DNA of 64,000 bases from Candidatus Bathyarchaeota archaeon. GTDB taxonomy: Archaea > Thermoproteota > Bathyarchaeia > Bathyarchaeales > Bathycorpusculaceae. Made by a program: the position numbers and the translations under genes. The notes under the pieces were generated by a model. That model had not been told where the DNA came from. It did not search any database and saw nothing but the letters and a program-made list of their open reading frames with translations. The stretch spans positions 96,001 to 160,000 of the forward strand of contig CAWABA010000007.1 of the NCBI GenBank assembly GCA_963780185.1. Direction: 5' to 3'. This document shows, one piece after another, positions 3,133 to 62,757 of this stretch; position 1 is the stretch's first letter, and every line of letters starts with the position of its first letter.

Positions 3133-3315
3133 ATGAAAGAGCTGAGAGAAAAGAACCATCTCACTCAGGAGCGGCTGGCGCAGAAAGTAGGTGTGAGACG
3201 GGAGACGATTCTTTTTTTGGAGAAAGGCAAGTATAATCCTTCGCTGAAGCTGGCTTACGATATAGCCAAAGTGCTAGATGCCAAGATAGAAGACGTTTTT
3301 GTCTTTGAAGATTAA
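3133..3315 (+). CDS. XRE-family HTH transcriptional regulator
   Basis: [32 protein letters not shown]. Confidence 0.92.
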
Positions 3316-3378
3316 GCTTGCTCCGAGGAGCTGTGAAAGCTTTTATGCGAGTTATGGGTAACATGATTGAGGGTTTTC

Positions 3379-3486
3379 ATGGCAAAAGCAGCAAAACCAG
3401 CGAAATTGACAAAGGCAGAAGAAGAAAAGAAAAAGAAAGCCTACTACGCTAAGAAAGAGAAAAAAGCTAAAGAAGTTAAGAAATAG
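3379..3486 (+). CDS. Small Lys-rich protein (35 aa)
   Basis: MAKAAKPAKLTKAEEEKKKKAYYAKKEKKAKEVKK*; GAGGG upstream and T-tract downstream; below the track size cutoff. Confidence 0.55.
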   Translation: MAKAAKPAKLTKAEEEKKKKAYYAKKEKKAKEVKK

Positions 3487-3662
3487 CTTTTTAGCTTAGA
3501 ACTTTGGCAGAGCTTTCTCGTCTTGGATAGTGTTGATGCTATTTAACTCGCATTTGGTTAGGTACAACCATCTTTCACGATGCGTCAGGGAGAAACCGTG
3601 GAAGTATCTGAACACGTGATTTTGGTTTTTGTTGAAAAAGCTCTTATGTAAATCAGGAGTAT

Positions 3663-4931
3663 TTGCCAACAGGTGGAAACGCGGTAAAACTTTCGCTTCA
3701 TTATCGTGAGATAATATGTTTAGTCGTGCTGCTTCTCGCGGCTTTTCTAGTCAGGTTTGTGCTGTTTCCTCTTCCTGGTTACGACTTTGACATGTTAACA
3801 TTTGCATCGTGGATTGCCACTGCTACTGACCGCGGAATAAGACCGTTCTACGACCTTGTGAGTTGGTGCGATTATCCACCCTTTAGCATTTACGTTTTCT
3901 GTTGCTTTGGAAACTTGGCGAAGGTGTTTGGATTTTACACGATGTCAAACATCTACAGCGTAGTAAAGTTCATTCCTAGTTTTTTCGATTTGGCAACAGC
4001 AAGTCTGATTTATTTTTTTGTAAGAAAGCAGTTGAGTTTCAAACTCACCTTGGCAACTGTGGCTCTCTACGCTTTTAACCCAGCAGTAATATTTAACTCG
4101 GCAGTGTGGGGGCAGTTTGATGCGGTATACACTTTCTTTCTGGTCCTGTCGCTTATGCTTGTGCTTAAAGGTAAACCCAAACTTTCCGCAGCTGTCTTTG
4201 CGTTGGCTGTTTTAACTAAGCCGCAAGCCATCGCTTTAGCACCTCTCATTGCTTTTTTGATTTACAAGAGGAATGGGTTGAAGAATCTTGGTTTCTCGTT
4301 GGGTGTGTTTGCTCTGAGTGTTTTTGAGGTTATTTTGCCTTTTAACTGGACCAATCCTGCAACTTTCTTAACCCACATCTATTTTGGGGCATACAGCGGC
4401 TTCAAATACACTTCAGTAAACGCCTTCAACATTTGGGCTCTAATCGGCTTCTACAAGCCCGATGGAAACCTCTTCATCTTAGGCTGGGGGCTGTTTGCAG
4501 CATTAGCAGTTTTCATATTGTATGTACTCAATAAACGCGATAATGCTTTGAATGACTCGCTCGCCGTGTTCAGCGCTTTCCTACTCTTATTCGGTTTCTT
4601 TATGTTGGAAACCAGGATTCATGAGCGCTATCTGTTTCCAGCTATAACCATGTTGGCTTTAACACTTCCATTCATGAAGAAGAAAACTTGGCCAATCTTT
4701 GCCGTTTTATCAGGCACCCTTTATCTTAATCAAGCATACATTTTGTACTTCCTCAACGGTCATCTGCGTATTCCGAACAGGAATTGGGTTGATTTATCGG
4801 CTATCATTATCAATATTTTAACGTTTGTTTACTCTTTGGTTTTGCTGCTCACTTATGCAAGAAAGATCAACTTCAGACCCAAGGTTTGGCTAGCCAGGCA
4901 TCTACAACATAGTGGCAATAGCAATCTTTGA
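3663..4931 (+). CDS. GT-C fold membrane glycosyltransferase (mannosyltransferase-like)
   Basis: DYPP, NPAVIFNSAVWGQFD, TKPQ and HERY motifs; polytopic membrane protein. Confidence 0.85.
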   Translation: MPTGGNAVKLSLHYREIICLVVLLLAAFLVRFVLFPLPGYDFDMLTFASWIATATDRGIRPFYDLVSWCDYPPFSIYVFCCFGNLAKVFGFYTMSNIYSVVKFIPSFFDLATASLIYFFVRKQLSFKLTLATVALYAFNPAVIFNSAVWGQFDAVYTFFLVLSLMLVLKGKPKLSAAVFALAVLTKPQAIALAPLIAFLIYKRNGLKNLGFSLGVFALSVFEVILPFNWTNPATFLTHIYFGAYSGFKYTSVNAFNIWALIGFYKPDGNLFILGWGLFAALAVFILYVLNKRDNALNDSLAVFSAFLLLFGFFMLETRIHERYLFPAITMLALTLPFMKKKTWPIFAVLSGTLYLNQAYILYFLNGHLRIPNRNWVDLSAIIINILTFVYSLVLLLTYARKINFRPKVWLARHLQHSGNSNL

Positions 4932-4958
4932 CTGATTATTTTAATTTCTTGCTGAGCC

Positions 4959-5720
4959 CTAAAGAAATTTCGGTAAGGCTCTCTTGTCGTAGATGGGGTC
5001 GAAGACCGTTAGCTCGTCTTTTGTTAGTGGCAACACGACTCTGGACACCAACCCGTTTAGGCTGTAGGGGAGTCGTATGAGACGCATTTCCCCAGAAGTG
5101 ACCCACTCGTCAATGTGAAAGCCCGCCTTCTTAACCTGCTGCGCAAGCTCAAGCCTTTCCGCAGGGCTTAACTCGTAAGCATGCGCATCTAAAACGTGCA
5201 GATGAAAGCCTCTGCCTGAATAAACAGCCCGAACATCTGAGAAACGCACAGAAAGAAAATCCCAAAGCCCTACCGCTTCCTGCTGAACCATCTGCAACTC
5301 CAAATCGCAGAAGCTCAAACCCTGCTTCCTCTTCATTTTATCCGCCAAGCTGCCGTGGATTGGGCACGTGATGTTTTCTGGGTCAAGGTCAAAGGCAAGT
5401 TCCTGTCCCGTTTTGGCGCCGCCTTTGTCGTATACGTTGCGGTCGTAGTAGACGGCTTCGGGTAGAAACTCGAGGATTTGCTGGCGCACATCTTCCAAGC
5501 TTGAGTACTCGTCGACAATTATTGTTGTGGAGGCGTCTTTTTTGTATTTTTCAGGGTAAATTTTTGTGTGCCTGCCCATGATGACTGCAAATTTGACTCT
5601 GCCCGGTTGGTTGCTGAGCCATTGCGAGACGGCTTGCAGGTTAAATTCTGAAGTGTAAAACTGTTTTCTCTCCTCTAAAGAGGCGTATCTCATGCCAGCA
5701 GGCAAAGAATATTGAACCAT
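4959..5720 (-). CDS. DNA primase small-subunit-like (AEP) protein
   Basis: ELAFDLD, YSGRGFHLHV and RLIRLPYSLNG motifs. Start moved to ATG 5720 because the longer track ORF overlaps the ferredoxin. Confidence 0.82.
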   Translation of the reverse strand: MVQYSLPAGMRYASLEERKQFYTSEFNLQAVSQWLSNQPGRVKFAVIMGRHTKIYPEKYKKDASTTIIVDEYSSLEDVRQQILEFLPEAVYYDRNVYDKGGAKTGQELAFDLDPENITCPIHGSLADKMKRKQGLSFCDLELQMVQQEAVGLWDFLSVRFSDVRAVYSGRGFHLHVLDAHAYELSPAERLELAQQVKKAGFHIDEWVTSGEMRLIRLPYSLNGLVSRVVLPLTKDELTVFDPIYDKRALPKFL

Positions 5721-5825
5721 AACAACCACTGAACAAATTGGCAGCCGACCAAAAAAGGTTTTATGCAAACCCCCTTCAGAAACCCTAATATTTAGCGCTT
5801 TAATGCTGTTTATTGGTGAAATTTT

Positions 5826-6140
5826 TTGCCTATTGACCCGGATTTTCAAACAAAACGCCAAGTTGTCGGCGAACATAATGGACATAAAGTTTGGGGACCC
5901 GTAATAGCTCCTCAAAGACTGGGAATTCATGGAACCACAAGTGCGGTGGATTGGGATAGCTGCGTTGGAGACGGCGTATGCATCGACGTTTGTCCCGTTT
6001 CGCTGTATGATTGGGCTGAATCGCCCGGGCATCCGCTCTCTGAACGCAAATCTGACCCCGCCCGTGAAAACGACTGTATACAGTGCCTTGCCTGCGAAAT
6101 GCAGTGTCCAGCTCAAGCCATAAAAATTACGCCGCATTAA
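5826..6140 (+). CDS. zfx: Zinc-containing ferredoxin
   Basis: N-terminal extension IDP..VVGEHNGHKVWGP..LGIHGT with His Zn ligands; CxxDxxCxxxCP and CxxCxxCxxxCP motifs. Confidence 0.88.
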   Translation: MPIDPDFQTKRQVVGEHNGHKVWGPVIAPQRLGIHGTTSAVDWDSCVGDGVCIDVCPVSLYDWAESPGHPLSERKSDPARENDCIQCLACEMQCPAQAIKITPH

Positions 6141-6214
6141 GCGGCGCCCTGTTTGTTTTAGATTAACAAGTATTATATTAGCAAACGCGCCAAATAGTGC
6201 ATTGGGCACCGTCT

Positions 6215-6874
6215 ATGAGTAACGAATCAAAAGGCAAGGTCATTGCGGTTCTGCCAGCTGACGCCTCAGCAAAAACCACCGATGTAGTTGAAGAAATAAT
6301 TTCCTGCATAATGGAATCGGGCGAAGTTGACGTTGTAGGGGTAGGCGACGGGATTTTTCTGGCTTGTTCAGCCGTGAACATGGCGTCGGAAATCGCCAAA
6401 GTCTACGTTGAAGACATCTACATTGGAAACCTGGAAGCGCCAAAACTCGGCAAAGCAGCCGCCATCTCCGTGCATCTGGGGCAAAAACAAATCGGGGACT
6501 ACGCTCAAGCGGCAGAGCAAGAGGAGAAAGGGTTTGAAGATGTCGAGGAGCAAACCGTCAGCGTAAGCAGAGCGGCAACTATGGAGCGACTGCTCACTAT
6601 TGGTCTTTTGAGGCTTGCAAAATTTGAAAAAATCAGAATCGTCGCTGCAGGAGGCTCAATCAACGACGCCGTCGCACTCGCGTTGAGGCTGACTACGGGG
6701 CAGATATCCAAAGATGAAGTAGGCACCAAGCTCGTGCACCTGTACGCCATCAAAATGAGAAACGAACCCACAAAAAGCATAGCCGCCGTATCCATCTACC
6801 TACAAAAAGGGTTATCAACCATCTATAGCAAAAGGCAAAAAGACCTGCTTAAAAGCCTAGAAAGTGGAAACTAA
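6215..6874 (+). CDS. Protein with two tandem Alba-like domains
   Basis: Two repeats of an Alba-like pattern: EVDVVGVGDGIFLACSAV...AISVHL and KIRIVAAGGSINDAVALA...AVSIYL. Confidence 0.6.
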   Translation: MSNESKGKVIAVLPADASAKTTDVVEEIISCIMESGEVDVVGVGDGIFLACSAVNMASEIAKVYVEDIYIGNLEAPKLGKAAAISVHLGQKQIGDYAQAAEQEEKGFEDVEEQTVSVSRAATMERLLTIGLLRLAKFEKIRIVAAGGSINDAVALALRLTTGQISKDEVGTKLVHLYAIKMRNEPTKSIAAVSIYLQKGLSTIYSKRQKDLLKSLESGN

Positions 6875-6953
6875 CGTTTTTTCAATTTTGGTTAGGAAAG
6901 GAAAGAGTTGGGAAATCCGCAAAAAAACGCGGAAAATCATTTTGTTTTTATTT

Positions 6954-7562
6954 TTAAAGGCTTAGGTTCTTGTTTACTCTGTCCCAGTTGACGACGTTCC
7001 AGAAGGCTTCGATGAATTTAGGTCGCTCATTCTTGTAGTCGACGTAGTACGCGTGCTCCCAAACATCCAGAACCATCAGGATTTTGAACGTCGGGTAAAC
7101 GTTAACGTTGTGCTTCTCAATCTGCAGTATCAGCGGCCTATCGACGCATGGGTGAACGGCTAAGGCAGCCCATCCTGAACCTTCAGTGGTTGCCGCAGCT
7201 TTTGTGAATTCTTTCTTGAACTGCTCGAAGCTTCCGAATTCCTTGTTGAGTGCGTCGGCTAATGCTCCTCCAGGTTGTCCGCCGCCGCCTTTGCCTGCTG
7301 GCGCCATGTTTTCCCAGAAAATCGAGTGCAACAGGTGACCGCCGACGTTGAAGGACAGGTCTTTGAGTAAGGCTTTCATGTCGACTTCGGCGTTGTCTTT
7401 GCGTGCCTTGTCGAGTTTTTCGAAGTCCGCGTTTGCGCCGTTCACGTAGGCTTGATGGTGCTTGTCGTGGTGCAGTTTAAGCTGCGTCTCTGAAATGTAG
7501 GGTTCAAGGGCGTTGTAATCGTAGGGCAATTTGGGCAGACTAAATGATTTTACTTTTTCCAT
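6954..7562 (-). CDS. sod: Fe/Mn superoxide dismutase
   Basis: [19 protein letters not shown] and DVWEHAYY motifs. Confidence 0.97.
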
Positions 7563-52984: not shown

Positions 52985-53287
52985 ATGTCCAAAACAATCG
53001 AACTCGCCAAAAAACTCGACGCCCTATCTCACCCCCTCCGCCTCAAAATAGTCGCCGCCCTCACCGACCGCGAAATGTACCTAAACGAAATAGCCAACAA
53101 AGTCGGCGTCAGCCGCGCCCTCGCAAAAATCCACCTAAAAAAACTCGAAAAAGCAGGGATAGTGGCAAGCCGCATAGTCACAGCAGAAAACGAAGCAAAA
53201 GCCCTACGATACTACCAACTAAAAAACTTTGACCTACACGTCAACCCCCAAACCATCCGAAAGGAGGTGGAAAACAATGGACAGTAG
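52985..53287 (+). CDS. ArsR-family transcriptional regulator
   Basis: ALSHPLRLKIV...VSRALAKIHLKKLEKAGIV. Confidence 0.9.
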   Translation: MSKTIELAKKLDALSHPLRLKIVAALTDREMYLNEIANKVGVSRALAKIHLKKLEKAGIVASRIVTAENEAKALRYYQLKNFDLHVNPQTIRKEVENNGQ

Positions 53288-53570
53288 ATCAGCCATAATC
53301 GGCACCTGCTGGATCGCCATCGCCGTCATCTCAGCCATGTACATCTACGTTGGAGGCGTAAACCTCGGCACAGACATCATCGTAGCCTTACTCGTTCTCC
53401 TCGCAACAGGCATCACCTTTGCCGTCGGCTTCGGATTGGAAGGCATGCGAAGGTACGGTCCACCCTCAAGAGCAGAAACCCAAGCATCCCTCGACCTTAC
53501 CGAACTGAAAAACTCCATAATTGAACTAACAAAAAAGGTGGAGGCACTACAGAAAGAACTACAAGAATAA
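53277..53570 (+). CDS. Small 2-TM protein with C-terminal coiled coil
   Basis: GGAGGTG ribosome-binding site before ATG 53277, overlapping the ArsR end. Confidence 0.7.
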   Translation: MDSRSAIIGTCWIAIAVISAMYIYVGGVNLGTDIIVALLVLLATGITFAVGFGLEGMRRYGPPSRAETQASLDLTELKNSIIELTKKVEALQKELQE

Positions 53571-53627
53571 AAACGGAGACCAAAAAAGGTCCTCCGCAAC
53601 TATTTTTTGAAATTTAAAGAAAAGGAT

Positions 53628-54713
53628 TTAGCGTTCCCGTTTGCCTGCTATCCAGTCTTCTGTCCATTGGCGTGCTTGGGAGTCAGGAACTTGGACTGGA
53701 GGATGTTTGAATGCATACGAGGGCATGCTGATGAGGGTACCTGAGATTTTGCGGTCTAAAGCGATTTTGGCTGCTCGGATAAGGTCGATGACTACGCCTG
53801 CACTGTTGGGGCTGTCTTCAACTTCAAGTTTAACGCTCATGTTAATGGGGCGGTCTCCAAAAGCGCGGGTTTTAAGCGAGATATAGCAGATTTTCTTGTT
53901 CTTAAGAAACGGCACATAATCTGACGGACCGATGCGCGTGGGCAAAGCGTAGGGAACAAGGCTGGTGACTGCTTCGGTTTTGCTGATGCGCTTTGACGTG
54001 AGGCGGTTTTCTACGGTCATGTTTTGGAAGTCTGTGTCGCCGCCAAGGTTAAGCTGGTAAGTTTCGTCGACGATGACGCCGCGGTCTAGGCAGAGGCGCA
54101 CGAGGGTTCGGTGCAGTATGGTGGCGCCGACCTGGCTTTTAATGTCGTCACCCAAAACGGGCAAGCCTGCCGCTTCGAATTTCTTTGGCCACTCCTTTGA
54201 CGCATCTGAGCCGATAAATTCAGGCATACAGTTTACTAAAGCGCATCCCGCGTCGATGGCACATTGAGCGTAAAATCGGACTGCATCATGGCTTCCCACA
54301 GGAAGATAATTAACAAGAACCTGAACTTTGGCGTCTTTGAGGGTTTTGACGATGCTTTCTTTGGTGGTTTTGCTGTCATCGTACACGCTGAAGGTTTCGC
54401 GCATGTGGGGTGCTGCGCCGTCAAGAATGATGCCAGGCGACACTTTCACGCCCAAATTGGGGACGTCGCTGAATTTTTCGCAGCAGTTAGGTTTAACCCA
54501 GATGGCTTCTGAGAGATCTTTGCCGATCTTGTTTTTGTTAACTTCAAAAGCGGCAACAAAATGTATGTCCTTTATGTGGTAGCCGCCGTAATTGACATGC
54601 ATCAAGCCGGGAACCGTTGTGTCTTCTTTTGCATCTTTATAATATTGAGTTCCCTGAACCAGGGCACAAGCGCTGTTGCCAACGCCCACAAGTGCAACAC
54701 GAATTTCAGGCAT
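53628..54713 (-). CDS. ino1: myo-Inositol-1-phosphate synthase
   Basis: VGVGNSA, NYLPVGS, GDDIKSQVGAT, GGDTDF and EDSPNSAG motifs. Confidence 0.95.
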   Translation of the reverse strand: MPEIRVALVGVGNSACALVQGTQYYKDAKEDTTVPGLMHVNYGGYHIKDIHFVAAFEVNKNKIGKDLSEAIWVKPNCCEKFSDVPNLGVKVSPGIILDGAAPHMRETFSVYDDSKTTKESIVKTLKDAKVQVLVNYLPVGSHDAVRFYAQCAIDAGCALVNCMPEFIGSDASKEWPKKFEAAGLPVLGDDIKSQVGATILHRTLVRLCLDRGVIVDETYQLNLGGDTDFQNMTVENRLTSKRISKTEAVTSLVPYALPTRIGPSDYVPFLKNKKICYISLKTRAFGDRPINMSVKLEVEDSPNSAGVVIDLIRAAKIALDRKISGTLISMPSYAFKHPPVQVPDSQARQWTEDWIAGKRER

Positions 54714-54783
54714 GTAACTGCAACCATCCAAGAGTTTTCTATGTTAGAATAGCCTTAATGTCCACCTACGCTATAACTTTTTC
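54658..54783 (-). repeat. ino1 promoter and 5' end, copy belonging to the intact gene (direct repeat with 56069-56191)
   Basis: Shared CCAGGGCACAAGCGCTGTTGCCAACGCC...CACGAATTTCAGGCAT...AACCATCC...TAGCCTTAATGT..CCTACGCTATAACTTTTTC. Confidence 0.9.
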
Positions 54784-54797
54784 CTCAGTTGACACAA

Positions 54798-55409
54798 TCA
54801 AGTCTTAAGCAGTTTTCTTATTTCAAACACAAAATCCCTTGCCCGCTGAAGGGAAGTCTGCGCATATCCTCTTTTTGCTTGCACTCCAATATCATACTGG
54901 AACTTGCTCCGTTTCTTACGTTCGCCCTCATAAGAAATAATCAGTTCGTCTGCCTTTTTCTGCATCCTTTTCATCAGTTCTTCTCGACCGACAAGCTCTA
55001 ACCCTACTGTCTGGGCTTCTTCATACTGCTCGAGGAGTTTTGCCAGTTTCTCGTTTGAAGCGAAGAAGTGTATGAGTGCATCAGCTGTGACCTTGTGCAC
55101 TATCTGCCCCGTGGCTCGGATGCCCTGTTTTGCCAGTATTGCCGTTGCCGCATAAAACATGGAGTAGTATGAAGAAACGATTACCCAGAGGTAAGACTCA
55201 AAATCTGCGCCGACTTTCAACGTATCTTTTAGGGAGTTATCGTCTGATACTTCCTGCAAAATTGAGGCAGTCCGCAGAGAAAAATCAGCGTTAGCCATGA
55301 AAAAATCCACAAATCGGGCTGCATCTTTATCACCTGTCCTTAGTAAGTCATCTTTAATGTAAGTTTTGACGTTTCTTTTGGCTTCCTCTAACCGCGCCTT
55401 TTCTATCAT
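54798..55409 (-). CDS. HEPN domain protein (putative toxin)
   Basis: WVIVSSYYSMFYAA..H and R-x4-Y (RSKFQY) motifs; 4-nt overlap with the MNT gene. Confidence 0.8.
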   Translation of the reverse strand: MIEKARLEEAKRNVKTYIKDDLLRTGDKDAARFVDFFMANADFSLRTASILQEVSDDNSLKDTLKVGADFESYLWVIVSSYYSMFYAATAILAKQGIRATGQIVHKVTADALIHFFASNEKLAKLLEQYEEAQTVGLELVGREELMKRMQKKADELIISYEGERKKRSKFQYDIGVQAKRGYAQTSLQRARDFVFEIRKLLKT

Positions 55410-56023
55410 AGTACTTCCTCCAATGTTTTAAGCAGAATCTCCGCCCCATATGGAACTATTCTGTTGTCTATTGCTTCCCAAGCAACATTAGGCTTTTCCT
55501 GTTTGAGGAGCTCCATAAACTCGCTATTAGTTAATATAATCTCATGGATCCCTAGTGGGCTAACACGCTGCACAGATCCTACCGCTGCCTCTACCTCTTT
55601 TTCGAAACTGTCCTCAGGAATTATTAAGAGCACGTCTAAATCCGATCTTGTTGAAGCAGTGCCCTTTACATGGGACCCAAATAGTATGAGGGTGAAGAAG
55701 GGCGATGAAATCTTGGAGGTTAAATCGTTAACGAGGATTTCTATGTCTTTATGTTTCTCAAAGAAGCGGCTAGCACGTACTCCTTCTATGTAGGCAAGAA
55801 GCGTCGAAGTGCCTTTTAGGTTGAGTCTGCAAAAAGTTACTGGACGTTTCTTCTCCGCAATTATGTAATGTTGCTGGGCTAGCCGCATGGTCATGGTGTA
55901 TGTGATTTTGTAGTCTTTTCCGATTGCTTCGGCTATTTGTCTCACTGTGAAGCTTTCCCGAATTCTTGAACTCAGAAAAGCTAGAATTTCGATTGAAGTC
56001 TTAGTTAATGGTTCTAAGTACAT
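55406..56023 (-). CDS. HTH plus minimal nucleotidyltransferase (MNT) antitoxin
   Basis: FTVRQIAEAIGKDY HTH; LFGSHVKG..SDLDVL (GS..DxD). Confidence 0.88.
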   Translation of the reverse strand: MYLEPLTKTSIEILAFLSSRIRESFTVRQIAEAIGKDYKITYTMTMRLAQQHYIIAEKKRPVTFCRLNLKGTSTLLAYIEGVRASRFFEKHKDIEILVNDLTSKISSPFFTLILFGSHVKGTASTRSDLDVLLIIPEDSFEKEVEAAVGSVQRVSPLGIHEIILTNSEFMELLKQEKPNVAWEAIDNRIVPYGAEILLKTLEEVL

Positions 56024-56035
56024 AATATTATGTAC
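56018..56035. promoter_or_regulatory. Palindromic operator overlapping the MNT start codon
   Basis: Perfect 18-bp palindrome GTACATAATATTATGTAC. Confidence 0.6.
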
Positions 56036-56055
56036 CTAAATACACATGTTAGCTA

Positions 56056-56191
56056 TTAATTTTGCGCTACCAGGGCACAAGCGCTGTTGCCAACGCCGAC
56101 CAAAGCTACACGAATTTCAGGCATCTAAAGGTAACCATCCGAGATTGTTATGTAGTTTAGCCTTAATGTTCGCCTACGCTATAACTTTTTC
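56056..56191 (-). pseudogene. Truncated second copy of the ino1 promoter and first 19 codons
   Basis: ATG 56124 gives MPEIRVALVGVGNSACALV-AQN*. Confidence 0.85.
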
Positions 56192-56379
56192 TAAAAACTT
56201 CGGTGAAAAATTAGGACTTGGGCTTGTTTTCGTCTTTTTGCTAAGTGATTGAAGTTATCCGTTGTTGATTGAGGCGCAATCTTTTAACTGTAATGGGGCT
56301 TGACTGAATCGCCCATGGAAATTCAATAACAAAAAACAATTCAAAGAACTTAAATACGGTAAGCAACAATGTGAATTAA

Positions 56380-57012
56380 TTGCTTCCCAAACAAGCGATA
56401 TGTTGGTCGTTTGAAACATTGATTAATCTTCCAAAAATGATTAATGCAGTGGGAAACGATTGCGTAGTGGCAACGGTCACCATGGTTTGCATGTATTGGC
56501 GACAAAGGAAGCAAGACTTAGACTGGAAGTTGCCGTTAGATTTTGAACATCAGAAATGGAAGGATTTTTACAAAAAAGGATTAACTTATGTACGAACGTC
56601 AGGAATGCCAGCCAATAACATTAAACGTTTTCTGAGCAAGTTAGAACTGCCCTTAAGCGCCAAACTTGTCCTTCTTGAAGACAAGTACGGGTTAAGGAAT
56701 TTGATCGACACAATGGTTCCGCCGATAGTTTTTTACGACCATACATATTTTCTAAAAAACGTTAGAGGTCCTGGACATGCTGTTATACTTGTTGACCAAA
56801 CTGACGAGCTCTTTATATCCGTTGACCCCTCTTTAGGACCGAAGTATTATTCTAAACCTGCCAAAACTGATTTTGAGGAAGCATGGAAGTTGGATCATAA
56901 TGCCACGATTATCCTTCTTCCGAAAATTGATAGTATCATAGAAAGAAAGATTCCCAGTCAGACAAAAAGCCTTATGCCATACTTAACAAGTAATCCAGGA
57001 GATAGAAAATGA
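56380..57012 (+). CDS. C39-like (papain-fold) cysteine peptidase
   Basis: NDCVVATVTMV (Cys), GHAVIL (His), VDPSLG (Asp) and FEEAW motifs; no signal peptide. Confidence 0.75.
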   Translation: MLPKQAICWSFETLINLPKMINAVGNDCVVATVTMVCMYWRQRKQDLDWKLPLDFEHQKWKDFYKKGLTYVRTSGMPANNIKRFLSKLELPLSAKLVLLEDKYGLRNLIDTMVPPIVFYDHTYFLKNVRGPGHAVILVDQTDELFISVDPSLGPKYYSKPAKTDFEEAWKLDHNATIILLPKIDSIIERKIPSQTKSLMPYLTSNPGDRK

Positions 57013-58007
57013 AACTAAAACTGCGCGTTCAGAAACTCGATGATCCTGAACTCATTGCTTACGACAGGATTCTAAGACACTACGGATCGGGCTGTTATGC
57101 CCAAACTCCAGAAGATAACGAAACATACTGGCGGGTTCCAATCGGAGCATATCTGCAGTCTAATGTGGTTGACGAGAAAACTGAAAAAGAAAGAGTATTT
57201 ACGCTTAACTTCCGCAATGTCGGAGAAATTACGATAAAAAAATCAACCATGCGAGTAAGTAAGGCCACACCCTTGTGGTCATTAGGAAAGAACATTTTTA
57301 ATAAGAAGAGCGAAATTAGGCGAGTTGTTGAAGAGGATTTAATCAAAATATTGGGCAACAGAGAGACCGGTATTCGTTTCGGGCAGCTCAAGTTCGCCTT
57401 CAGTGGCTTACAACCGATTTACCGCACGATTAACAGACTAATAGTGGAGGATTATCCGTCTTACGATGAAATAGTTAACGCGGGTAAAAACTATCCAGGA
57501 CAGGTTGACCTTTTGGTTGACATTGGTTACGCTGAGTACACGACCGATGAACCAAGAAAACTAATTGCCACGAACAAACTAAAGGAACTCTACGAGGAAA
57601 AGAGGAATATTGAGAAAACCGTCGATGTAGTTTTTGGCTTGGTTCTAGCAGAATTCTATTATGATTTGCAGAGATTAAGAAGAATTGCACAGTTTATTCC
57701 TTACGTTAGAGCGAGTACAGCTTACTATGGCAATGCCATCCAGTTTGGTAGATTAATCGGCATGCGAGAAAATACTCTCTGTGAGAATATCCGAGAGTAC
57801 TATAAGGGAGCACCAACGCCGCCCAAATTAAGGTATGGCTATCCTACCATAATTAGAGAACTAGTCGATGCGCAAATTCTGGAGTTCGACGATAACGAAT
57901 GTGTCACTGGAAAAATGGGCATTTTCAAGAAACTGATGTCGGTCAGGGAAAAAATACCCTATGGTGAAGTGCCCTTTCCCTTTGGAGACCTGATTAATGG
58001 GGCTTAA
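57009..58007 (+). CDS. Hypothetical protein, possibly two winged-helix-like repeats
   Basis: ATGA overlap with the peptidase; VDLLVDIGYAEY..IATNKLKEL and IRELVDAQILEF segments. Confidence 0.75.
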   Translation: MKLKLRVQKLDDPELIAYDRILRHYGSGCYAQTPEDNETYWRVPIGAYLQSNVVDEKTEKERVFTLNFRNVGEITIKKSTMRVSKATPLWSLGKNIFNKKSEIRRVVEEDLIKILGNRETGIRFGQLKFAFSGLQPIYRTINRLIVEDYPSYDEIVNAGKNYPGQVDLLVDIGYAEYTTDEPRKLIATNKLKELYEEKRNIEKTVDVVFGLVLAEFYYDLQRLRRIAQFIPYVRASTAYYGNAIQFGRLIGMRENTLCENIREYYKGAPTPPKLRYGYPTIIRELVDAQILEFDDNECVTGKMGIFKKLMSVREKIPYGEVPFPFGDLINGA

Positions 58008-58575
58008 TCAAATTGTCTCAGAACTCGTAAAAGTCTACAAAGTTGAAGATACGTATTACCCAAAATTCTCAATAGAAACAGATATCGAAGGAGGACTAAA
58101 TGGCGAAGCAAAGATAATTGTGAATGGTTTGTCTGAGTGCGGTTTCGATATTTCAACTGAGAATGTTTTTAAAATTATGGAAATAAAAAGGCTATTACTA
58201 AGCCGTTATCTATTGGACAAGGATGGCATTGAGTCAAAGCAAAAGTATACGAAATTACTTCTTGAAGAGATCAAACCAGTAGGTTCACTTTTGCCAATTG
58301 ATTTTTTGCTAGTGAATGGGGTTGTCGCCGTCACCCTGTATTTAGTTGCCCGCTTCGGCGGCAGCTTCATGGATGAAGCAGGCAAAATAGCAGCTCAGAA
58401 AGTTTTGGGCCAAAGCAAAAAAGCAGCTAAAAAACTCAATATGGATGTGTCGGAATACAATTATTTTATTGGGGAAATTCATTTGCTCATCCAAAACGGT
58501 GAATTGGAAAGGATAGTGAACCACGAAACACTAACTAAAAGCAAAAGCATTAGAAAGAAAACAAAGTTTGACTAA
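57997..58575 (+). CDS. Hypothetical protein with one central hydrophobic helix
   Basis: 11-nt overlap with the upstream gene; FLLVNGVVAVTLYLVARFGGSF segment. Confidence 0.7.
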   Translation: MGLNQIVSELVKVYKVEDTYYPKFSIETDIEGGLNGEAKIIVNGLSECGFDISTENVFKIMEIKRLLLSRYLLDKDGIESKQKYTKLLLEEIKPVGSLLPIDFLLVNGVVAVTLYLVARFGGSFMDEAGKIAAQKVLGQSKKAAKKLNMDVSEYNYFIGEIHLLIQNGELERIVNHETLTKSKSIRKKTKFD

Positions 58576-58708
58576 GTGCAGTCCGTCAAAGCGCGATGTA
58601 TTTTTTATGGTGCATGAATTCATGGCAAAATTAAAAGGGAACCACCGACACACTAGTTGACCAGCTGAAGATGAAGTTCAGTTTCTGGAAAATTGTGAGC
58701 CATTGATT

Positions 58709-59113
58709 TCATTTTCGTATTCGTAGTAGGTTTATGTTTGCGCCGTTGAATTCTTTGTCGCTGCCGACTACTAGTTTGGCTTTGTTGGCTTGGGCGGTGG
58801 CTACTGCGAAGGCGTCTGCTAGAGACATTGAATGTTTTGATTTGAGAAGGGCAGCTTCTCTCCACAGTCCGTCGTCTTCTATTGGAACGACTTTCAGGCC
58901 CATTTGTCGGAGCTTCTTCTCTTTTTCTTCCGCTAATTTCGGGTCTTTCCGACTGAGGATGTAATAGATTTCGGCTAGGTTGATTATGTTTATGTTGCCG
59001 TCGGCTGAGCCGTCACCGATCTGTTCAAGGATATCTTGAACAACTTCTGCTCCTTCTTCATTCAAATAGAAGGCAAGTAAGGCTTCTGCATCAAATGTGT
59101 AGTTTTCGGGCAC
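58709..59113 (-). CDS. vapC: VapC/PIN domain toxin
   Basis: FDAEALLA, NLAEIYY, SLADAFAVA and GSDKEF motifs; start uncertain. Confidence 0.9.
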   Translation of the reverse strand: MPENYTFDAEALLAFYLNEEGAEVVQDILEQIGDGSADGNINIINLAEIYYILSRKDPKLAEEKEKKLRQMGLKVVPIEDDGLWREAALLKSKHSMSLADAFAVATAQANKAKLVVGSDKEFNGANINLLRIRK

Positions 59114-59360
59114 GGCGTTCAAGCTTCCGCTCTTCTGCATATTCTTCTTTTCGCGCCTCTTCAAGAAGCTGCTTTGCGGTTTTTCCTTTGAAAATCTCCT
59201 TCAACGAGCCTCGTTCCTGGCTGGGCAAAGGTGCTGGTCTAAGAACGATTCCGCATTCGTTTTCTTCGAAGATGACCTTGTTCGTTATGCCATATTTCTG
59301 TCTTAATTTTTTAGGTATCGTCGCCTGCCCCTTTTTTGTGACTGAAACAACTTCAACCAT
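59091..59360 (-). CDS. AbrB/MazE-type antitoxin
   Basis: VTKKGQATIPKKLRQKYGI. Confidence 0.9.
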   Translation of the reverse strand: MVEVVSVTKKGQATIPKKLRQKYGITNKVIFEENECGIVLRPAPLPSQERGSLKEIFKGKTAKQLLEEARKEEYAEERKLERRARKLHI

Positions 59361-59515
59361 CCAAACGAACTCCAAGTAATAACATCTGAACCAGTAATAC
59401 TTAAACTTAATGGGAATACTATTCCGAAAAGTAGCACACCAGTTCAGCGTGCGAAAACAAGGGTTTACGGTAATATTAAAAGGGAACCGCTTACACCTTA
59501 AATATCCAGCTAAGG

Positions 59516-59896
59516 ATGAGTGTTATGAGTGCACCTGAAGTAAACATTTCCTACTCGCCATTCAAAGAAATTGTTGTTATGGAGAAAACCTTCTTCACCA
59601 CGCCTGAAGACATAGCAAGATTCACCTCCGTCATAGCAGGGGGCAAACTTGCGGGGCTTTACTGGGTTGAAGGCGTAGTCTTCCTATATTTCCCCCTCCC
59701 AGCATCAACAACCGCCGTGGCACGAGAGCTGCTGGAGAACCGCAAAGTTTTCTGGACGTTTGTCGGTTACTCGCTTATGCCAAAGTATGCGCAGACGATT
59801 GAAACTAAAGAAAGAATGATTGTTCCAGTCGTAGACATATCATCTGATCCTGTTCTGAAACAGGTTGCTATTTGGCTAAAAGAACAGCCGAAGTAA
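59516..59896 (+). CDS. Hypothetical protein
   Basis: Clean 126-aa ORF with upstream TATA-like TTAAATA, upstream of ribK on the same strand. Confidence 0.7.
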   Translation: MSVMSAPEVNISYSPFKEIVVMEKTFFTTPEDIARFTSVIAGGKLAGLYWVEGVVFLYFPLPASTTAVARELLENRKVFWTFVGYSLMPKYAQTIETKERMIVPVVDISSDPVLKQVAIWLKEQPK

Positions 59897-59915
59897 GCCT
59901 GTTGAAGGCTGATTT

Positions 59916-60302
59916 TTGCCGCAGATAACCTTCAAGGGCACGGTTTTTTCTGGCAGAGGCGAAGGACGAAAATTCATCGCTTTACCGTGGGTTAAGCGGC
60001 AGATAGAGCAAAAACTCGGGTTTACCCCATACGCTGGAACACTAAACATCCGCCTAACAAAAGAGAGCGCCCTGCAGAAAGGGATGCTTGAGAAAGCTGA
60101 AAAATTTGAGATTTCTCCCGAGAAAGGCTTCTGCACTGGATTCCTAATTAAAGCGTGCTTGGGGGATTTGATTTGCGGGATTGTGCTTCCGCAGGTGCCT
60201 AGTTATCCTCAAGATGTTTTGGAGGTTGTTGCCGCTTGGAATCTGCGGGAACGCCTCAAACTGGGGGACGGGAGAGAGGTCTGCGTCGCGGTTACTGTGT
60301 GA
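59916..60302 (+). CDS. ribK: CTP-dependent riboflavin kinase
   Basis: GTVFSGRGEG, GFTPYAGTLN and LEVVA..NLRERLKL.DG motifs. Confidence 0.92.
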   Translation: MPQITFKGTVFSGRGEGRKFIALPWVKRQIEQKLGFTPYAGTLNIRLTKESALQKGMLEKAEKFEISPEKGFCTGFLIKACLGDLICGIVLPQVPSYPQDVLEVVAAWNLRERLKLGDGREVCVAVTV

Positions 60303-61806
60303 CTGAGTTGCAGTTCTTTTTTATGAATGCTATGCGTTCGTCTGCAGCGCCGTACTTCTCAAGGTATTCGCCGTAGGTCACCAGTGCCTTCATCGCTCGG
60401 GCAGCAGCCTCAGGCGAAGAGTATGATGGAACGTTGAGTCTGTCGAAGCGTGAGCGGGTGTAGAGTGCCATTTCTGTTTCGCCGATATCGCACATAACGA
60501 TGGGTTTGTTGTATCTTGAGGCTATCATAACGATGCCGTCAATGTACTTCTCACGCAGTCCAGGCATATGATGGAGCCCAAGCAAGATTATGCCGTTAAT
60601 TTCTGGGTCCCGAAACATAACGTCCGCTGAGATAACGAATTGGTCATCAGTCACTGAGCCAGTAAGGTCAACGGGGTTTGATGTGGCGGAAATTTTGAGA
60701 ATTTGGTTAGTGTCTTTGAGCTGCTGGAACTCCGCCAGTATGTCGGGGGTGAATGTGTTGACGGTTAAGCCTAAAACCTCACATTCATCCACCGTCATGA
60801 CGCCAGGTCCACCTGCGTCGGTCAATATGCCCATGTTTCTCCCGACGGCTGGAGGCTGCATAGCGAGGGCTTTTCCCATGCCGAAGAAATCATCCATGTC
60901 CTGCGCCCTTATGACTCCAGATTGCTCGAAGGCGGCGTCGTAGATTTTGTCTGACCCAGCTATAGCGCCTGTGTGTGACGCTGCGGCTCGGGCGCCTGCG
61001 GAACTCCTTCCAGTTTTTATAACGACGACAGGTTTTTTGAGGGTTACTTTCTTTGCGATTTCCATGAATTCGCGCCCGTTCTTGACGTCTTCCAAGTACA
61101 TGAGCGTCACATGGGTTTCTTTGTCGTAGAGGAGGTAGTGAAGTATGTCTGATTCGTCTACGTCGCATTTGTTGCCGAAGCTAACGAATTTGCTTACACC
61201 CATCTGGCGACCTGTCAAGAAGTCAAGAGCTGCGGATCCGAAGGCGCCGCTTTGCGTAATCATCGCGATGTTGCCGGGCATCGGTCTTGGCGTCGCGACT
61301 ACTTCGTCGCCGGTGGTGAGGGTTTTGGTTTCGGGAAGGAAAAGGGTGTCGATGCCTGTTTTTGAATAGTAGACTCCGAGGCAGTTAGGTCCTAGGACGC
61401 GTATTCCGCCTTTCTTTGCGATTGCGACCACTTGCTCCTCAAGCGCTACGTTCCCAACTTCCTTGAAGCCAGCGCTGATTATGACGCAGGCTTTGACTTT
61501 TTTTGCGATGGCTTCCTCCATTACGCTCGGAACAACCGTTGCTGGAACGATGATGACGATTAAATCCACGTCGCCTGGAACGTCGCTTAAGCTTTTGAAA
61601 CATTTGAAGCCTAAGATTGAATCTTCGTTTGGATTAACTGGGTAAAGCTGTCCTTTGTAGACGCCACGTAGTTTGCTTGTTGAGAAGTTCTTGAAGATAA
61701 CGTGCCCTGCTTTATCGACTTTTTTTGTGGCGCCGATGACTGCCACTGTTTGAGGATTAAAGAAAGCATCCAACTTCCTTAATGCTTCTTCCATGTCACT
61801 TTTCAC
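60292..61806 (-). CDS. acdA: ADP-forming acetyl/acyl-CoA synthetase alpha subunit
   Basis: VAVIGA, GPNCLG, TQSGA, ASHTGAIAG and NPVDLTG motifs. Confidence 0.9.
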   Translation of the reverse strand: MKSDMEEALRKLDAFFNPQTVAVIGATKKVDKAGHVIFKNFSTSKLRGVYKGQLYPVNPNEDSILGFKCFKSLSDVPGDVDLIVIIVPATVVPSVMEEAIAKKVKACVIISAGFKEVGNVALEEQVVAIAKKGGIRVLGPNCLGVYYSKTGIDTLFLPETKTLTTGDEVVATPRPMPGNIAMITQSGAFGSAALDFLTGRQMGVSKFVSFGNKCDVDESDILHYLLYDKETHVTLMYLEDVKNGREFMEIAKKVTLKKPVVVIKTGRSSAGARAAASHTGAIAGSDKIYDAAFEQSGVIRAQDMDDFFGMGKALAMQPPAVGRNMGILTDAGGPGVMTVDECEVLGLTVNTFTPDILAEFQQLKDTNQILKISATSNPVDLTGSVTDDQFVISADVMFRDPEINGIILLGLHHMPGLREKYIDGIVMIASRYNKPIVMCDIGETEMALYTRSRFDRLNVPSYSSPEAAARAMKALVTYGEYLEKYGAADERIAFIKKNCNSVTQ

Positions 61807-61896
61807 CTTGTACCTGTACCGTATGTTGCCTCTGAAGTCTTGTTTTTATCTGTTACTCTTCTAAAATCAGGTTTTCTACTACAACATTATCGGTGC

Positions 61897-62757
61897 TCAT
61901 CTATTAACCTTCTTTACTACGCTTTTCCTAACGACGACCAGTGGCTTATGCTTGATTTTTGACAGCATCTCCCAGCTTACCCCGTTTACATCCACTTGAA
62001 ACCTGGAAGCCATATCCCAAACCGTCGCGCCTGAACCCGCACCCCTGGCTCTGTCAGCTATGTTGGTAATCGTCAACGCTTGACTGGCGTCAAGACTGCA
62101 ACCGGCGACCGCCAAAGGCGTCGAGCTTTTCTTGAGCTTAAGGACCCTGCCAATAACATAGGCTACAAGGCCGCCGAAAGAGTATATCCCCTTCATCGGT
62201 TTCGGTCTTGGCGTAAAAAAGAAGTTTCTGAACCTGTAAGTTTTGTCAGTATCAGCCACAACCACGCAGACGTTTCGCTTCAGCTTCAAAAGTATCCGCC
62301 GCTGGATTTCATCCGCCACCGCATCGGCGTTTTCTAAAGGCAAAGACACGTAGGCATAGGGGAGGTTGGAGCCATCGATTCCGCCTTCAGACCCAAACAT
62401 AAGCGCCTGCAAAACACCCGTCTGCTCCAGCGTCAACTGTTTATGTCGGCTGCCTGATTCAAACGGATAATTCCTCAGCCTAACCAACAGTCGCTGCCCA
62501 AAATGGCACATTACGCCGACGGGGTACCCCCAGGCAATTCGCATCCAAAAACGAGCTAAAACCTTGGCGGCTAAGGTGGGTTTCACGGTTTGTTCGTCTG
62601 CAATGTTGCCTTTTGCCGTTGAAACTGCCTTTTCGGAGATGACTACGAAGTCGTCGTTTTCAAGTTTCCCATCTAAAGCCTCGATTACCTTTGCGACGTA
62701 ATCGTCTTTGGGTTTCCAGTAACTGGTACAGACCGCCAGGGCGTAGTACTTAACCAT
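61897..62757 (-). CDS. Coenzyme F420-0:glutamate ligase (CofE)-like protein
   Basis: VVISEKAVS, GGIDGSN and VADTD motifs. Confidence 0.75.
   Translation of the reverse strand: MVKYYALAVCTSYWKPKDDYVAKVIEALDGKLENDDFVVISEKAVSTAKGNIADEQTVKPTLAAKVLARFWMRIAWGYPVGVMCHFGQRLLVRLRNYPFESGSRHKQLTLEQTGVLQALMFGSEGGIDGSNLPYAYVSLPLENADAVADEIQRRILLKLKRNVCVVVADTDKTYRFRNFFFTPRPKPMKGIYSFGGLVAYVIGRVLKLKKSSTPLAVAGCSLDASQALTITNIADRARGAGSGATVWDMASRFQVDVNGVSWEMLSKIKHKPLVVVRKSVVKKVNR

Follow-up and report, generated by a model that had tools for sequence, protein, structure and literature searches.

What does a compact trio of overlapping genes do in an archaeal genome when none of its products matches a known defense system? 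We address this question for a Candidatus Bathyarchaeota archaeon (GenBank assembly GCA_963780185.1), in positions 96,001 to 160,000 of contig CAWABA010000007.1. This whole stretch of 64,000 nucleotides is called the window here, and positions are counted from its first letter. The trio occupies three forward-strand open reading frames (ORFs), listed under translation table 11 as 56380..57012, 57009..58007, and 57997..58575. They overlap by 4 nt and 11 nt, and so have the coupled arrangement that an earlier note on this DNA had described. That note had proposed a sensor/protease/membrane-effector module. We find a conserved gene order, a conserved catalytic triad in gene 1, and a cassette that moves between genomes. 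As to function, we read the trio as a protease-based toxin–antitoxin (TA)-like conflict or addiction module, possibly one acting in abortive infection, and we give this reading somewhat less than an even chance.

Gene order and mobility of the cassette

The three ORFs are real genes and not chance ORFs, because homologues exist (78 close ones for gene 2; 38 for gene 1, 154–206 amino acids (aa) long, from a search that left out the “longer” length class) and the gene order is kept in related loci. Gene 1 most likely starts at the TTG at 56419, because the N-terminus that results, MINLPKM..., is that of its homologues, which begin MI.LPKM. The ORF ends and overlaps given earlier stand, and only the gene 1 start moves, from 56380 to this TTG. 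With the start so corrected, the cassette genes extend over 56419–58575.

Gene order is strongly conserved. We compiled 44 related loci (3 from genomes, 1 viral, and 40 from metagenomes); dropping three duplicates (L004 = L018, L022 = L023, L032 = L030) and adding the window gave 42. Gene 1 lies upstream of gene 2 in 30 of the 31 non-duplicate loci with at least 450 nt of room, and gene 3 lies downstream of gene 2 in 33 of the 33 with room, so the genes do occur together elsewhere, and in the same order, as the earlier proposal implied. The gap between genes 1 and 2 is −4 nt in 22 of 34 loci. The single exception to the position of gene 1, L016, is a natural knock-out: an rve-type transposase (L016 55–957) occupies its place, and genes 2 and 3 are intact.

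The peptidase and gene 2 form the conserved core of the trio. In eight of nine distant whole-genome loci, the gene 2 homologue is immediately preceded by a C39-like gene (N-terminally truncated in one of them), and in L067 the gene 2 homologue stands solo. A gene 3 homologue is present in just one of the nine, L066. This absence of gene 3 from most distant versions marks it as a clade-specific addition. Scanning genome contigs with a single protein gave no relatives; the alignment scan then gave three, and the relatives from the genome scan all come from Bathyarchaeia metagenome-assembled genomes.

The cassette is accessory and horizontally mobile. Its close form is present in 6 of the 401 genomes sampled from the class (4 of the 220 of good quality); of 40 other genomes in the genus, one has it. 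With a broad profile, 7 of 401 genomes across the phylum were matched. It is single-copy in the window's own genome, and the other genus member that has the trio (G399 = L001) carries it at a different location, beside transposases. Both flanking genes are kept in four same-genus genomes; a further one, G742, has a region without the right-flank genes. Three of the four (G753, G752, and G038) have an empty site, in which the inositol-phosphate synthase gene lies ~110 nt from a 126-aa ORF, followed by the riboflavin kinase and acetyl-CoA synthetase genes. The fourth, G751, has other cargo. At this site, empty in relatives, the window contains an insertion of ~4.8 kb. Two copies of the left half of the ancestral spacer, at 54643–54783 and 56054–56191, surround a HEPN–MNT pair. 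The right half is also present twice, at 58619–58674 and 59464–59519, around a VapBC pair. The trio lies exactly between the inner spacer copies.

The TA-type pairs at this site have borders of their own. Each has a direct repeat of its own on both sides (~140 nt and 56 nt, respectively), made of the duplicated halves of the 110-nt ancestral spacer. Repeat-bracketed TA pairs and trio together thus represent three cassettes stacked at one intergenic hot spot. The cargo of G751 at the same hot spot (L081 1824–7000) comprises a ParB-like gene, a 190-aa helix-turn-helix-like ORF, a 315-aa unknown, a membrane protein, an SspD-like phosphoadenosine phosphosulfate reductase (PADLOC SspD, 101.5 bits), and two VapBC pairs, one of which is 89–93% identical to that of the window.

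Related loci also place the trio in viral DNA and near recombinases. L018/L004 (1315–16993) is a head-tailed provirus or virus contig from a Bathyarchaeia host, with major-head, scaffold, portal-like, and terminase genes. The trio forms an oppositely oriented insert within its head-gene block and is a moron in one provirus. This is the single carrier contig found in the viral collection. Scanning that collection with two distant gene 2 proteins brought up no viral relatives, and collections of 50,697 phage and 72,556 plasmid records gave no match to the trio. We also scanned up to four ORFs on each side of the cassette in 30 loci (132 ORFs). The control consisted of six arbitrary 20-kb regions of the window's own genome, with ORFs called by the same rule (131 ORFs); it represents one genome, and the loci are non-independent. 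Recombinases (E ≤ 1e-8) account for 9 of 132 neighbor ORFs vs 1 of 131 control ORFs (Fisher p 0.019, in a crude test). Tyrosine recombinases lie within four ORFs in 6 of the 30 loci and transposases in 2. Association of the cassette with mobile DNA thus has some support.

The peptidase, its predicted partner, and the membrane protein

Alignments and structure prediction together identify gene 1 as a C39-like cysteine peptidase of papain fold, in which the Cys-His-Asp triad is conserved. Residues are numbered here in the 191-aa form that starts at ATG 56437. Among 18 aligned close homologues, Cys9 (codon 56461–56463) and His114 (56776–56778) are invariant, and Asp120 (56794–56796) is nearly so. 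In a 14-sequence alignment that includes eight distant-locus peptidases, the His is invariant and the Cys and Asp are nearly so; here the L059 copy is N-truncated and lacks the Cys region. The C39-type arrangement of these residues, first noticed in the single sequence, is therefore borne out by both alignments. The best Foldseek match of the AF2 model is the C39 domain of PCAT1 (E 3.4e-4, prob 1.00). A VIA-wide comparison gives PCAT1 at Z 9.7 (root-mean-square deviation (rmsd) 3.6, 129 aligned), LahT at 9.4, PeiR at 9.3, and ComA at 8.7, and all 50 of the 50 matches listed are papain-like enzymes. The papain fold on which the earlier proposal hinged is thus recovered by both searches. Two toxin–immunity structures are also among the fold matches: 8ssm, for StbD-CT/StbI (Z 8.5), and 9l5u, a papain-like protease toxin with its immunity protein (Foldseek E 9.3e-3).

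At the level of sequence families, the window protein itself has no Pfam match. Among its 18 close homologues there are sub-threshold Pfam matches to Peptidase_C39 in 11 and to C39_2 in 6 (best E 5e-4), and distant orthologues pass the PF13529 Peptidase_C39_2 cut-off (24) with 46.6, 44.9, and 26.7 bits. PDB sequences searched with the gene 1 alignment profile gave no matches at E up to 10. A weak match to Arnt_C, the aminoarabinose transferase C-terminal domain, is found in 13 of the 18 homologues (best E 0.0022), that is, in more of them than are matched by the C39 models.

Gene 1 is a stand-alone ORF and not the C-terminal domain of a secreted delivery protein. Its N-terminus is not strongly hydrophobic (maximum KD19 1.45), and a family scan found no wall-binding domain in it. 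Neither an ABC transporter nor a precursor gene is present among the ORFs read at 53000–62000 or inside the cassette borders, so the lack of signal peptide and transporter that the earlier note had remarked on is upheld. In the 30 related loci, where up to four ORFs per side were scanned, the annotation likewise shows no ABC exporter.

Gene 2 has homologues well beyond the close loci, with 184 cluster representatives at E ≤ 0.001 among 1.84 billion proteins; most of the 150 representatives listed are 300–340 aa long. No Pfam family reaches its cut-off in the relatives scanned (sets of 59 and 52), and HTH_45 is weakly matched in 4 of the 52. The AF2 model of gene 2 is good (pLDDT 86.1, pTM 0.81). 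It has an N-terminal alpha/beta domain at residues ~1–100 (57009–57308), made of a helix and an antiparallel sheet (~7–100); a long helix comes next. Two winged helices are likely present further on, at residues ~126–200 (57384–57608) and ~227–316 (57687–57956). The two segments that had earlier been likened to winged-helix ends are thus modeled as two winged-helix domains (pLDDT 86).

Structural comparisons of gene 2 point in two directions. VIA relates the model to winged helices (Orc/Cdc6, MCM8, MarR, and IscR) at Z 6–7.8, a range that the tool calls common for unrelated matches. The N-terminal domain reaches Z 7.8 to a cystatin-fold design, with the fungalysin propeptide and YpeB nearby; an inhibitor-like nature of this predicted domain is only a lead. 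A Foldseek search of the model against the PDB gave nothing at E ≤ 0.001, and a search of PDB sequences with the gene 2 alignment profile gave no matches at E up to 10. CorA, which appeared in the top Foldseek rows, was dismissed as a relative (TM ~0.1). In the Atlas of protein-language-model features, gene 2 is nearest to FokI recognition domains; the score of 0.90 is borderline and makes this a lead only.

Gene 3 consists of a soluble N-terminal part, a KPVG motif ahead of a hydrophobic helix, and a basic C-terminal tail. The helix, at residues ~97–121 (58285–58359; KD19 2.01), is the one such segment, in agreement with the single helix reported earlier. A strongly conserved juxtamembrane segment, RF.GSF.DEAGKI.A.K, follows it. 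Gene 3 gave only three matches in a word-based search, and its conservation was seen with a profile made from the ORFs downstream of gene 2. No relatives were found in the Atlas (best score 0.77). A search of gene 2 and gene 3 for a cleavage site turned up no conserved double-glycine motif; conserved are just G26 of gene 2 and the KPVG motif of gene 3.

The peptidase and gene 2 are predicted to form a complex. The ipSAE score is 0.80 (runs 0.79–0.82) vs 0.02 for the best of three controls; in the calibration of the tool, 116 of the 157 solved complexes attain the ipSAE mark, as do 2 of the 215 mismatched pairs, which is a rough guide here as custom alignments were used. At least 94% of contacts agree between runs, and the partner has a pLDDT of at least 81. 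On the peptidase side, the predicted interface comprises residues 5–7, 10, 53–60, 77–82, 109–115, and 165–177; it flanks Cys9 and covers His114 together with the invariant G56 and P58. On the gene 2 side, it comprises residues 1–12, 15, 18–19, 22–30, and 47–50, among them the nearly invariant Q8, D11, Y25, G26, and C29. Residues 6–8 of gene 2 pair with peptidase strand 79–81 in the model. The prediction supports binding of gene 2 to the peptidase at its active-site face.

What the cassette may do

The TA-like reading fits the evidence best because it accommodates a conserved protease, an active-site partner with DNA-binding-type domains, a compact operon, and cassette-like mobility. The trio would be a self-contained mobile cassette with its own candidate promoter, and gene 1 would be an active cytoplasmic C39-like peptidase that serves as the effector. 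Gene 2 would hold the peptidase in a stoichiometric complex, with its N-terminal tail and alpha/beta domain across the active-site face; the peptidase would thereby be latent, or gene 2 might itself be the substrate. The winged helices of gene 2 could bind DNA, either for autoregulation of the operon or for sensing of a trigger. Gene 3, as the addition of the Bathyarchaeia clade, may anchor or couple the complex to the membrane, or it may be a further target. Loss or displacement of gene 2 would then leave a freed peptidase that cuts cellular or viral proteins.

A role in antiviral defense is possible. We regard one specific form of it as quite improbable, namely an archaeal abortive-infection switch in which a tandem-winged-helix nucleic-acid sensor caps the C39-like protease and invading DNA or a viral protein frees it. 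The freed protease would cleave essential host or viral proteins, and in Bathyarchaeia it might also cleave or activate gene 3. The sensor/protease/membrane-effector module proposed earlier survives in part. Its conserved trio, its papain fold, and its lack of a known counterpart are retained, whereas the case for an obligatory effector, a detached sensor, and an excess of defense genes is weakened. Gene 3 is unlikely to be an obligatory effector because it is missing from most distant versions. Furthermore, the predicted binding of gene 2 at the active site fits an inhibitor, an antitoxin, or a substrate better than it fits a detached sensor.

The trio maps to no known system, a point on which the earlier note is sustained. 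None of the three proteins matches PADLOC-DB 2.0 (0 families each, E up to 1) or PHROGs, and none is above a curated cut-off in Pfam or NCBIfam; the sole hit is to FapD C39, at E 0.16. Gene 2 and gene 3 are two undescribed protein families from which the trio is built. One general model close to it is the type II TA system, in particular toxin-first operons of the HigBA or MqsRA type. With these the trio shares a compact coupled operon with a candidate promoter, a partner with a putative neutralizing domain and a predicted DNA-binding-type domain, and a patchy occurrence as mobile DNA at insertion hot spots that hold other TA pairs as well. It differs in that its effector would be a protease and not an RNase, kinase, or gyrase poison, in that its putative antitoxin has 332 aa, and in its extra membrane protein. 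Protease-triggered defense, as in CalpL–CalpT–CalpS and in gasdermins with an adjacent protease, likewise links a protease with a regulator or membrane protein, which is the general scheme that the earlier note had proposed. The trio, however, has no CARF, SAVED, NACHT, or repeat sensor domain, and gene 3, besides lacking any match in Pfam or PADLOC, does not occur in most distant versions.

A closer precedent comes from secreted toxins. As described in a preprint, StbD-CT is a C39-family cytoplasmic toxin of contact-dependent inhibition with a bound immunity protein, StbI, a small alpha/beta protein that extends the peptidase beta-sheet of StbD-CT (bioRxiv 10.64898/2026.05.07.723447). This is a precedent for a C39 toxin with a bound partner and thus supports the TA-like reading. 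StbD-CT and the 9l5u toxin are C-terminal domains of large secreted effectors that act between cells, whereas gene 1 is stand-alone and intracellular. Gene 2 also differs by its two predicted winged helices, and neither gene 1 nor gene 2 has sequence similarity to a PDB chain. In passages of two “dark matter” reviews (PMC4158269 and PMC6393860), the C39 peptidases mentioned are other ones only, and in those of a Bathyarchaeia virus paper (PMC10848311) the words peptidase, protease, and toxin are absent. We found no description of the trio in the literature searched, supplementary tables excluded.

Several observations weigh against the TA-like reading. StbI binds opposite the active site of StbD-CT, while the interface predicted here covers the active site and would suit a substrate no less than an inhibitor. 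What the complex score expresses is the confidence of a model, and the gene 1 model itself is mediocre (pLDDT 63.1, pTM 0.65). DNA binding by gene 2 is suggested by its fold only, through matches at Z 6–7.8, values often reached by unrelated proteins, and the cystatin-type likeness at Z 7.8 is equally weak. Gene 2, with 332 aa, is much bigger than the usual antitoxin. Clustering with defense genes, which had been part of the earlier argument, is not seen: PADLOC matches (E ≤ 1e-6) make up 12 of 132 neighbor ORFs vs 14 of 131 control ORFs (p 0.69), so there is no enrichment, and most of the control matches are generic ABC ATPases and helicases. Many loci (L002, L003, L030, and most two-gene loci) have housekeeping neighbors only. 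The flanking TA pairs carry little weight, because VapBC pairs are common across the window's own genome; the control regions held three PIN and two MazE ORFs.

A rival explanation is a regulated-proteolysis switch, which we consider unlikely. Gene 2 would be a winged-helix transcription factor held inactive (at the membrane, via gene 3, where gene 3 is present), which the peptidase processes on a signal; the cassette would then be an accessory regulator and not a toxin. The tandem winged helices of the gene 2 model suit such a factor, its N-terminal tail is predicted as a strand near the catalytic His, as a substrate would be, a membrane protein is co-transcribed to judge by its gene, which overlaps gene 2 in the window and follows it in 33 of 33 loci with room, and neighbors are housekeeping genes at many loci. 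On the other side, no target genes are conserved beside the cassette, whose context differs at every locus. The very patchy distribution and the empty site also argue against it, as do two-gene versions without a membrane partner, and no cleavage motif is conserved beyond one Gly. It is more doubtful still that the trio is cargo serving a virus or integrative element, for superinfection exclusion, counter-defense, or a life-cycle step such as protein processing. The position of the trio between the portal-like and terminase genes of the L018/L004 head-tailed provirus speaks for this, together with the tyrosine recombinases in 6 of 30 loci, the transposases in 2, and the recombinase excess over the control. 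However, a single viral-collection contig carries the trio, none of the 50,697 phage or 72,556 plasmid records does, most loci are without virus genes, and the trio of the window is without any element genes.

Two further explanations fit poorly, and we give each very little credence. The nearest folds of gene 1 are the leader-peptide peptidase domains of PCAT1, LahT, and ComA, which would suggest the classical C39 role, that is, maturation of a double-glycine leader peptide (bacteriocin or signaling) for export. Gene 1 shares with these enzymes the papain-like fold, with the Cys borne on a helix and then the His and Asp on the beta-sheet half. Unlike them, it is free-standing and apparently cytoplasmic, is neither fused nor adjacent to an exporter (no ABC transporter at 53000–62000 or among the scanned neighbors of 30 loci), and has no leader-substrate gene; a precursor gene would not fit between the cassette borders, and the conserved partner is instead a winged-helix protein of ~330 aa. 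Alternatively, in a lysis or envelope cassette the peptidase would be an envelope endopeptidase and gene 3 would be holin-like. The pseudomurein endoisopeptidase PeiR is among the best folds (Z 9.3, rmsd 4.4, 134 aligned), and one locus lies within a provirus. Against this stand the lack of a signal sequence or wall-binding domain in gene 1, the absence of gene 3 from most distant versions, and the prediction of a tight intracellular complex with a winged-helix protein.

If the TA-like reading is true, a protease acts as the poison of an intracellular TA-like module, a mechanism for which the known cases have so far been mainly secreted interbacterial toxins. Two uncharacterized families would be defined as well, gene 2 (184 cluster representatives) and gene 3, and the site would exemplify how small cassettes accumulate at a single intergenic hot spot of uncultured archaea. 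If the abortive-infection version is true, the trio would be a protease-effector immune module with two never-described families. The predicted protease–partner interface is concrete and directly testable. If the TA-like reading is wrong, there is still a conserved peptidase–partner pair, with its role then unassigned.

Borders, promoter, and neighboring genes

Composition and repeats delimit the cassette. The guanine-plus-cytosine (GC) content is 0.396 over 56200–58618, compared with 0.50 in the upstream inositol-phosphate synthase gene and 0.493 over 59516–61806; the cassette is indeed more AT-rich than its flanks, as first observed. The left border repeat, R1', contains the 5' end and upstream region of the synthase gene. 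It is 80–90% identical to 54643–54783 (direct repeats D1 and D3) and was aligned against the empty-site spacer of two same-genus genomes. The right border repeat, R2, contains the upstream region and start codon of the 126-aa ORF. The candidate TATA-like box has an aligned counterpart in L005, L007, L015, and L018, where a conserved A/T block, AAAAGGTTTAAAAATAGACC, precedes gene 1. No conserved palindrome or operator was found in the aligned upstream regions of related loci. No RNA run turned up for the cassette; there were just three DNA runs of one study, with at most 0.23 of words.

Features of the cassette and its borders, with positions in the window
Feature	Position	Strand	Basis
R1', left cassette border: ancestral spacer, left half (second copy)	56054..56199	.	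Repeats D1/D3 and empty-site alignment
Candidate archaeal TATA-like box, TTAAATA at 56350–56356	56345..56360	+	~63 nt 5' of the TTG start; inferred
Gene 1, predicted cytoplasmic C39-like papain-fold cysteine peptidase, 197 aa from TTG	56419..57012	+	Triad, fold matches, homologues
Gene 2, 332 aa, no described family; predicted alpha/beta domain and two winged helices	57009..58007	+	AF2 model
Gene 3, 192-aa predicted single-pass membrane protein	57997..58575	+	Hydrophobicity, conserved downstream position
R2, right cassette border: ancestral spacer, right half (copy)	58619..58674	.	Direct repeat D2 with 59464–59519, empty-site alignment

The bracketing of the trio by HEPN–MNT and AbrB–VapC pairs, reported earlier, was found again, with a weak HEPN match. 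On the left, the ORF at 54798–55409 matches HEPN with 17.5 bits (below the cut-off of 22), and that at 55406–56023 matches NTP_transf_2 with 28.5 bits, above the family cut-off. On the right, 58709–59164 matches PIN (64.8 bits) and 59091–59375 an AbrB/MazE-type family (28.9 bits).

Neighbors in the other loci include restriction nucleases (three loci), a caspase-type protease, an AbiL/OLD-like ATPase, and antitoxin-type genes. In L017, the region directly upstream of the trio (3281–7218) is a run of four candidate defense genes, for a PDC-S02/Mrr-like protein (384 bits), a DuOB protein (PDC-M45A), and two DUF488 proteins (PDC-M45C and PDC-M19A). One of the control regions, L090 1878–7883 (own genome, contig C5), has uvrC, uvrA, and uvrB apparently split over several ORFs, with separate ORFs for UvrA_inter, ABC_tran, UvrB, Helicase_C, and UvrB_inter; these may be frameshifts or assembly errors.

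The 126-aa ORF (59516–59896) of the right flank has no Pfam match; four same-genus genomes have it, with 80–84% identity, immediately before the riboflavin kinase gene. The inositol-phosphate synthase ORF (53628–54731, minus strand) probably starts further downstream than at the TTG listed for it: six relatives have a TAA within the first matched residues, and L081 and L084 have 361-aa ORFs that begin with ATG. The genome of the window also holds a second inositol-phosphate synthase paralogue, which is 44% identical.

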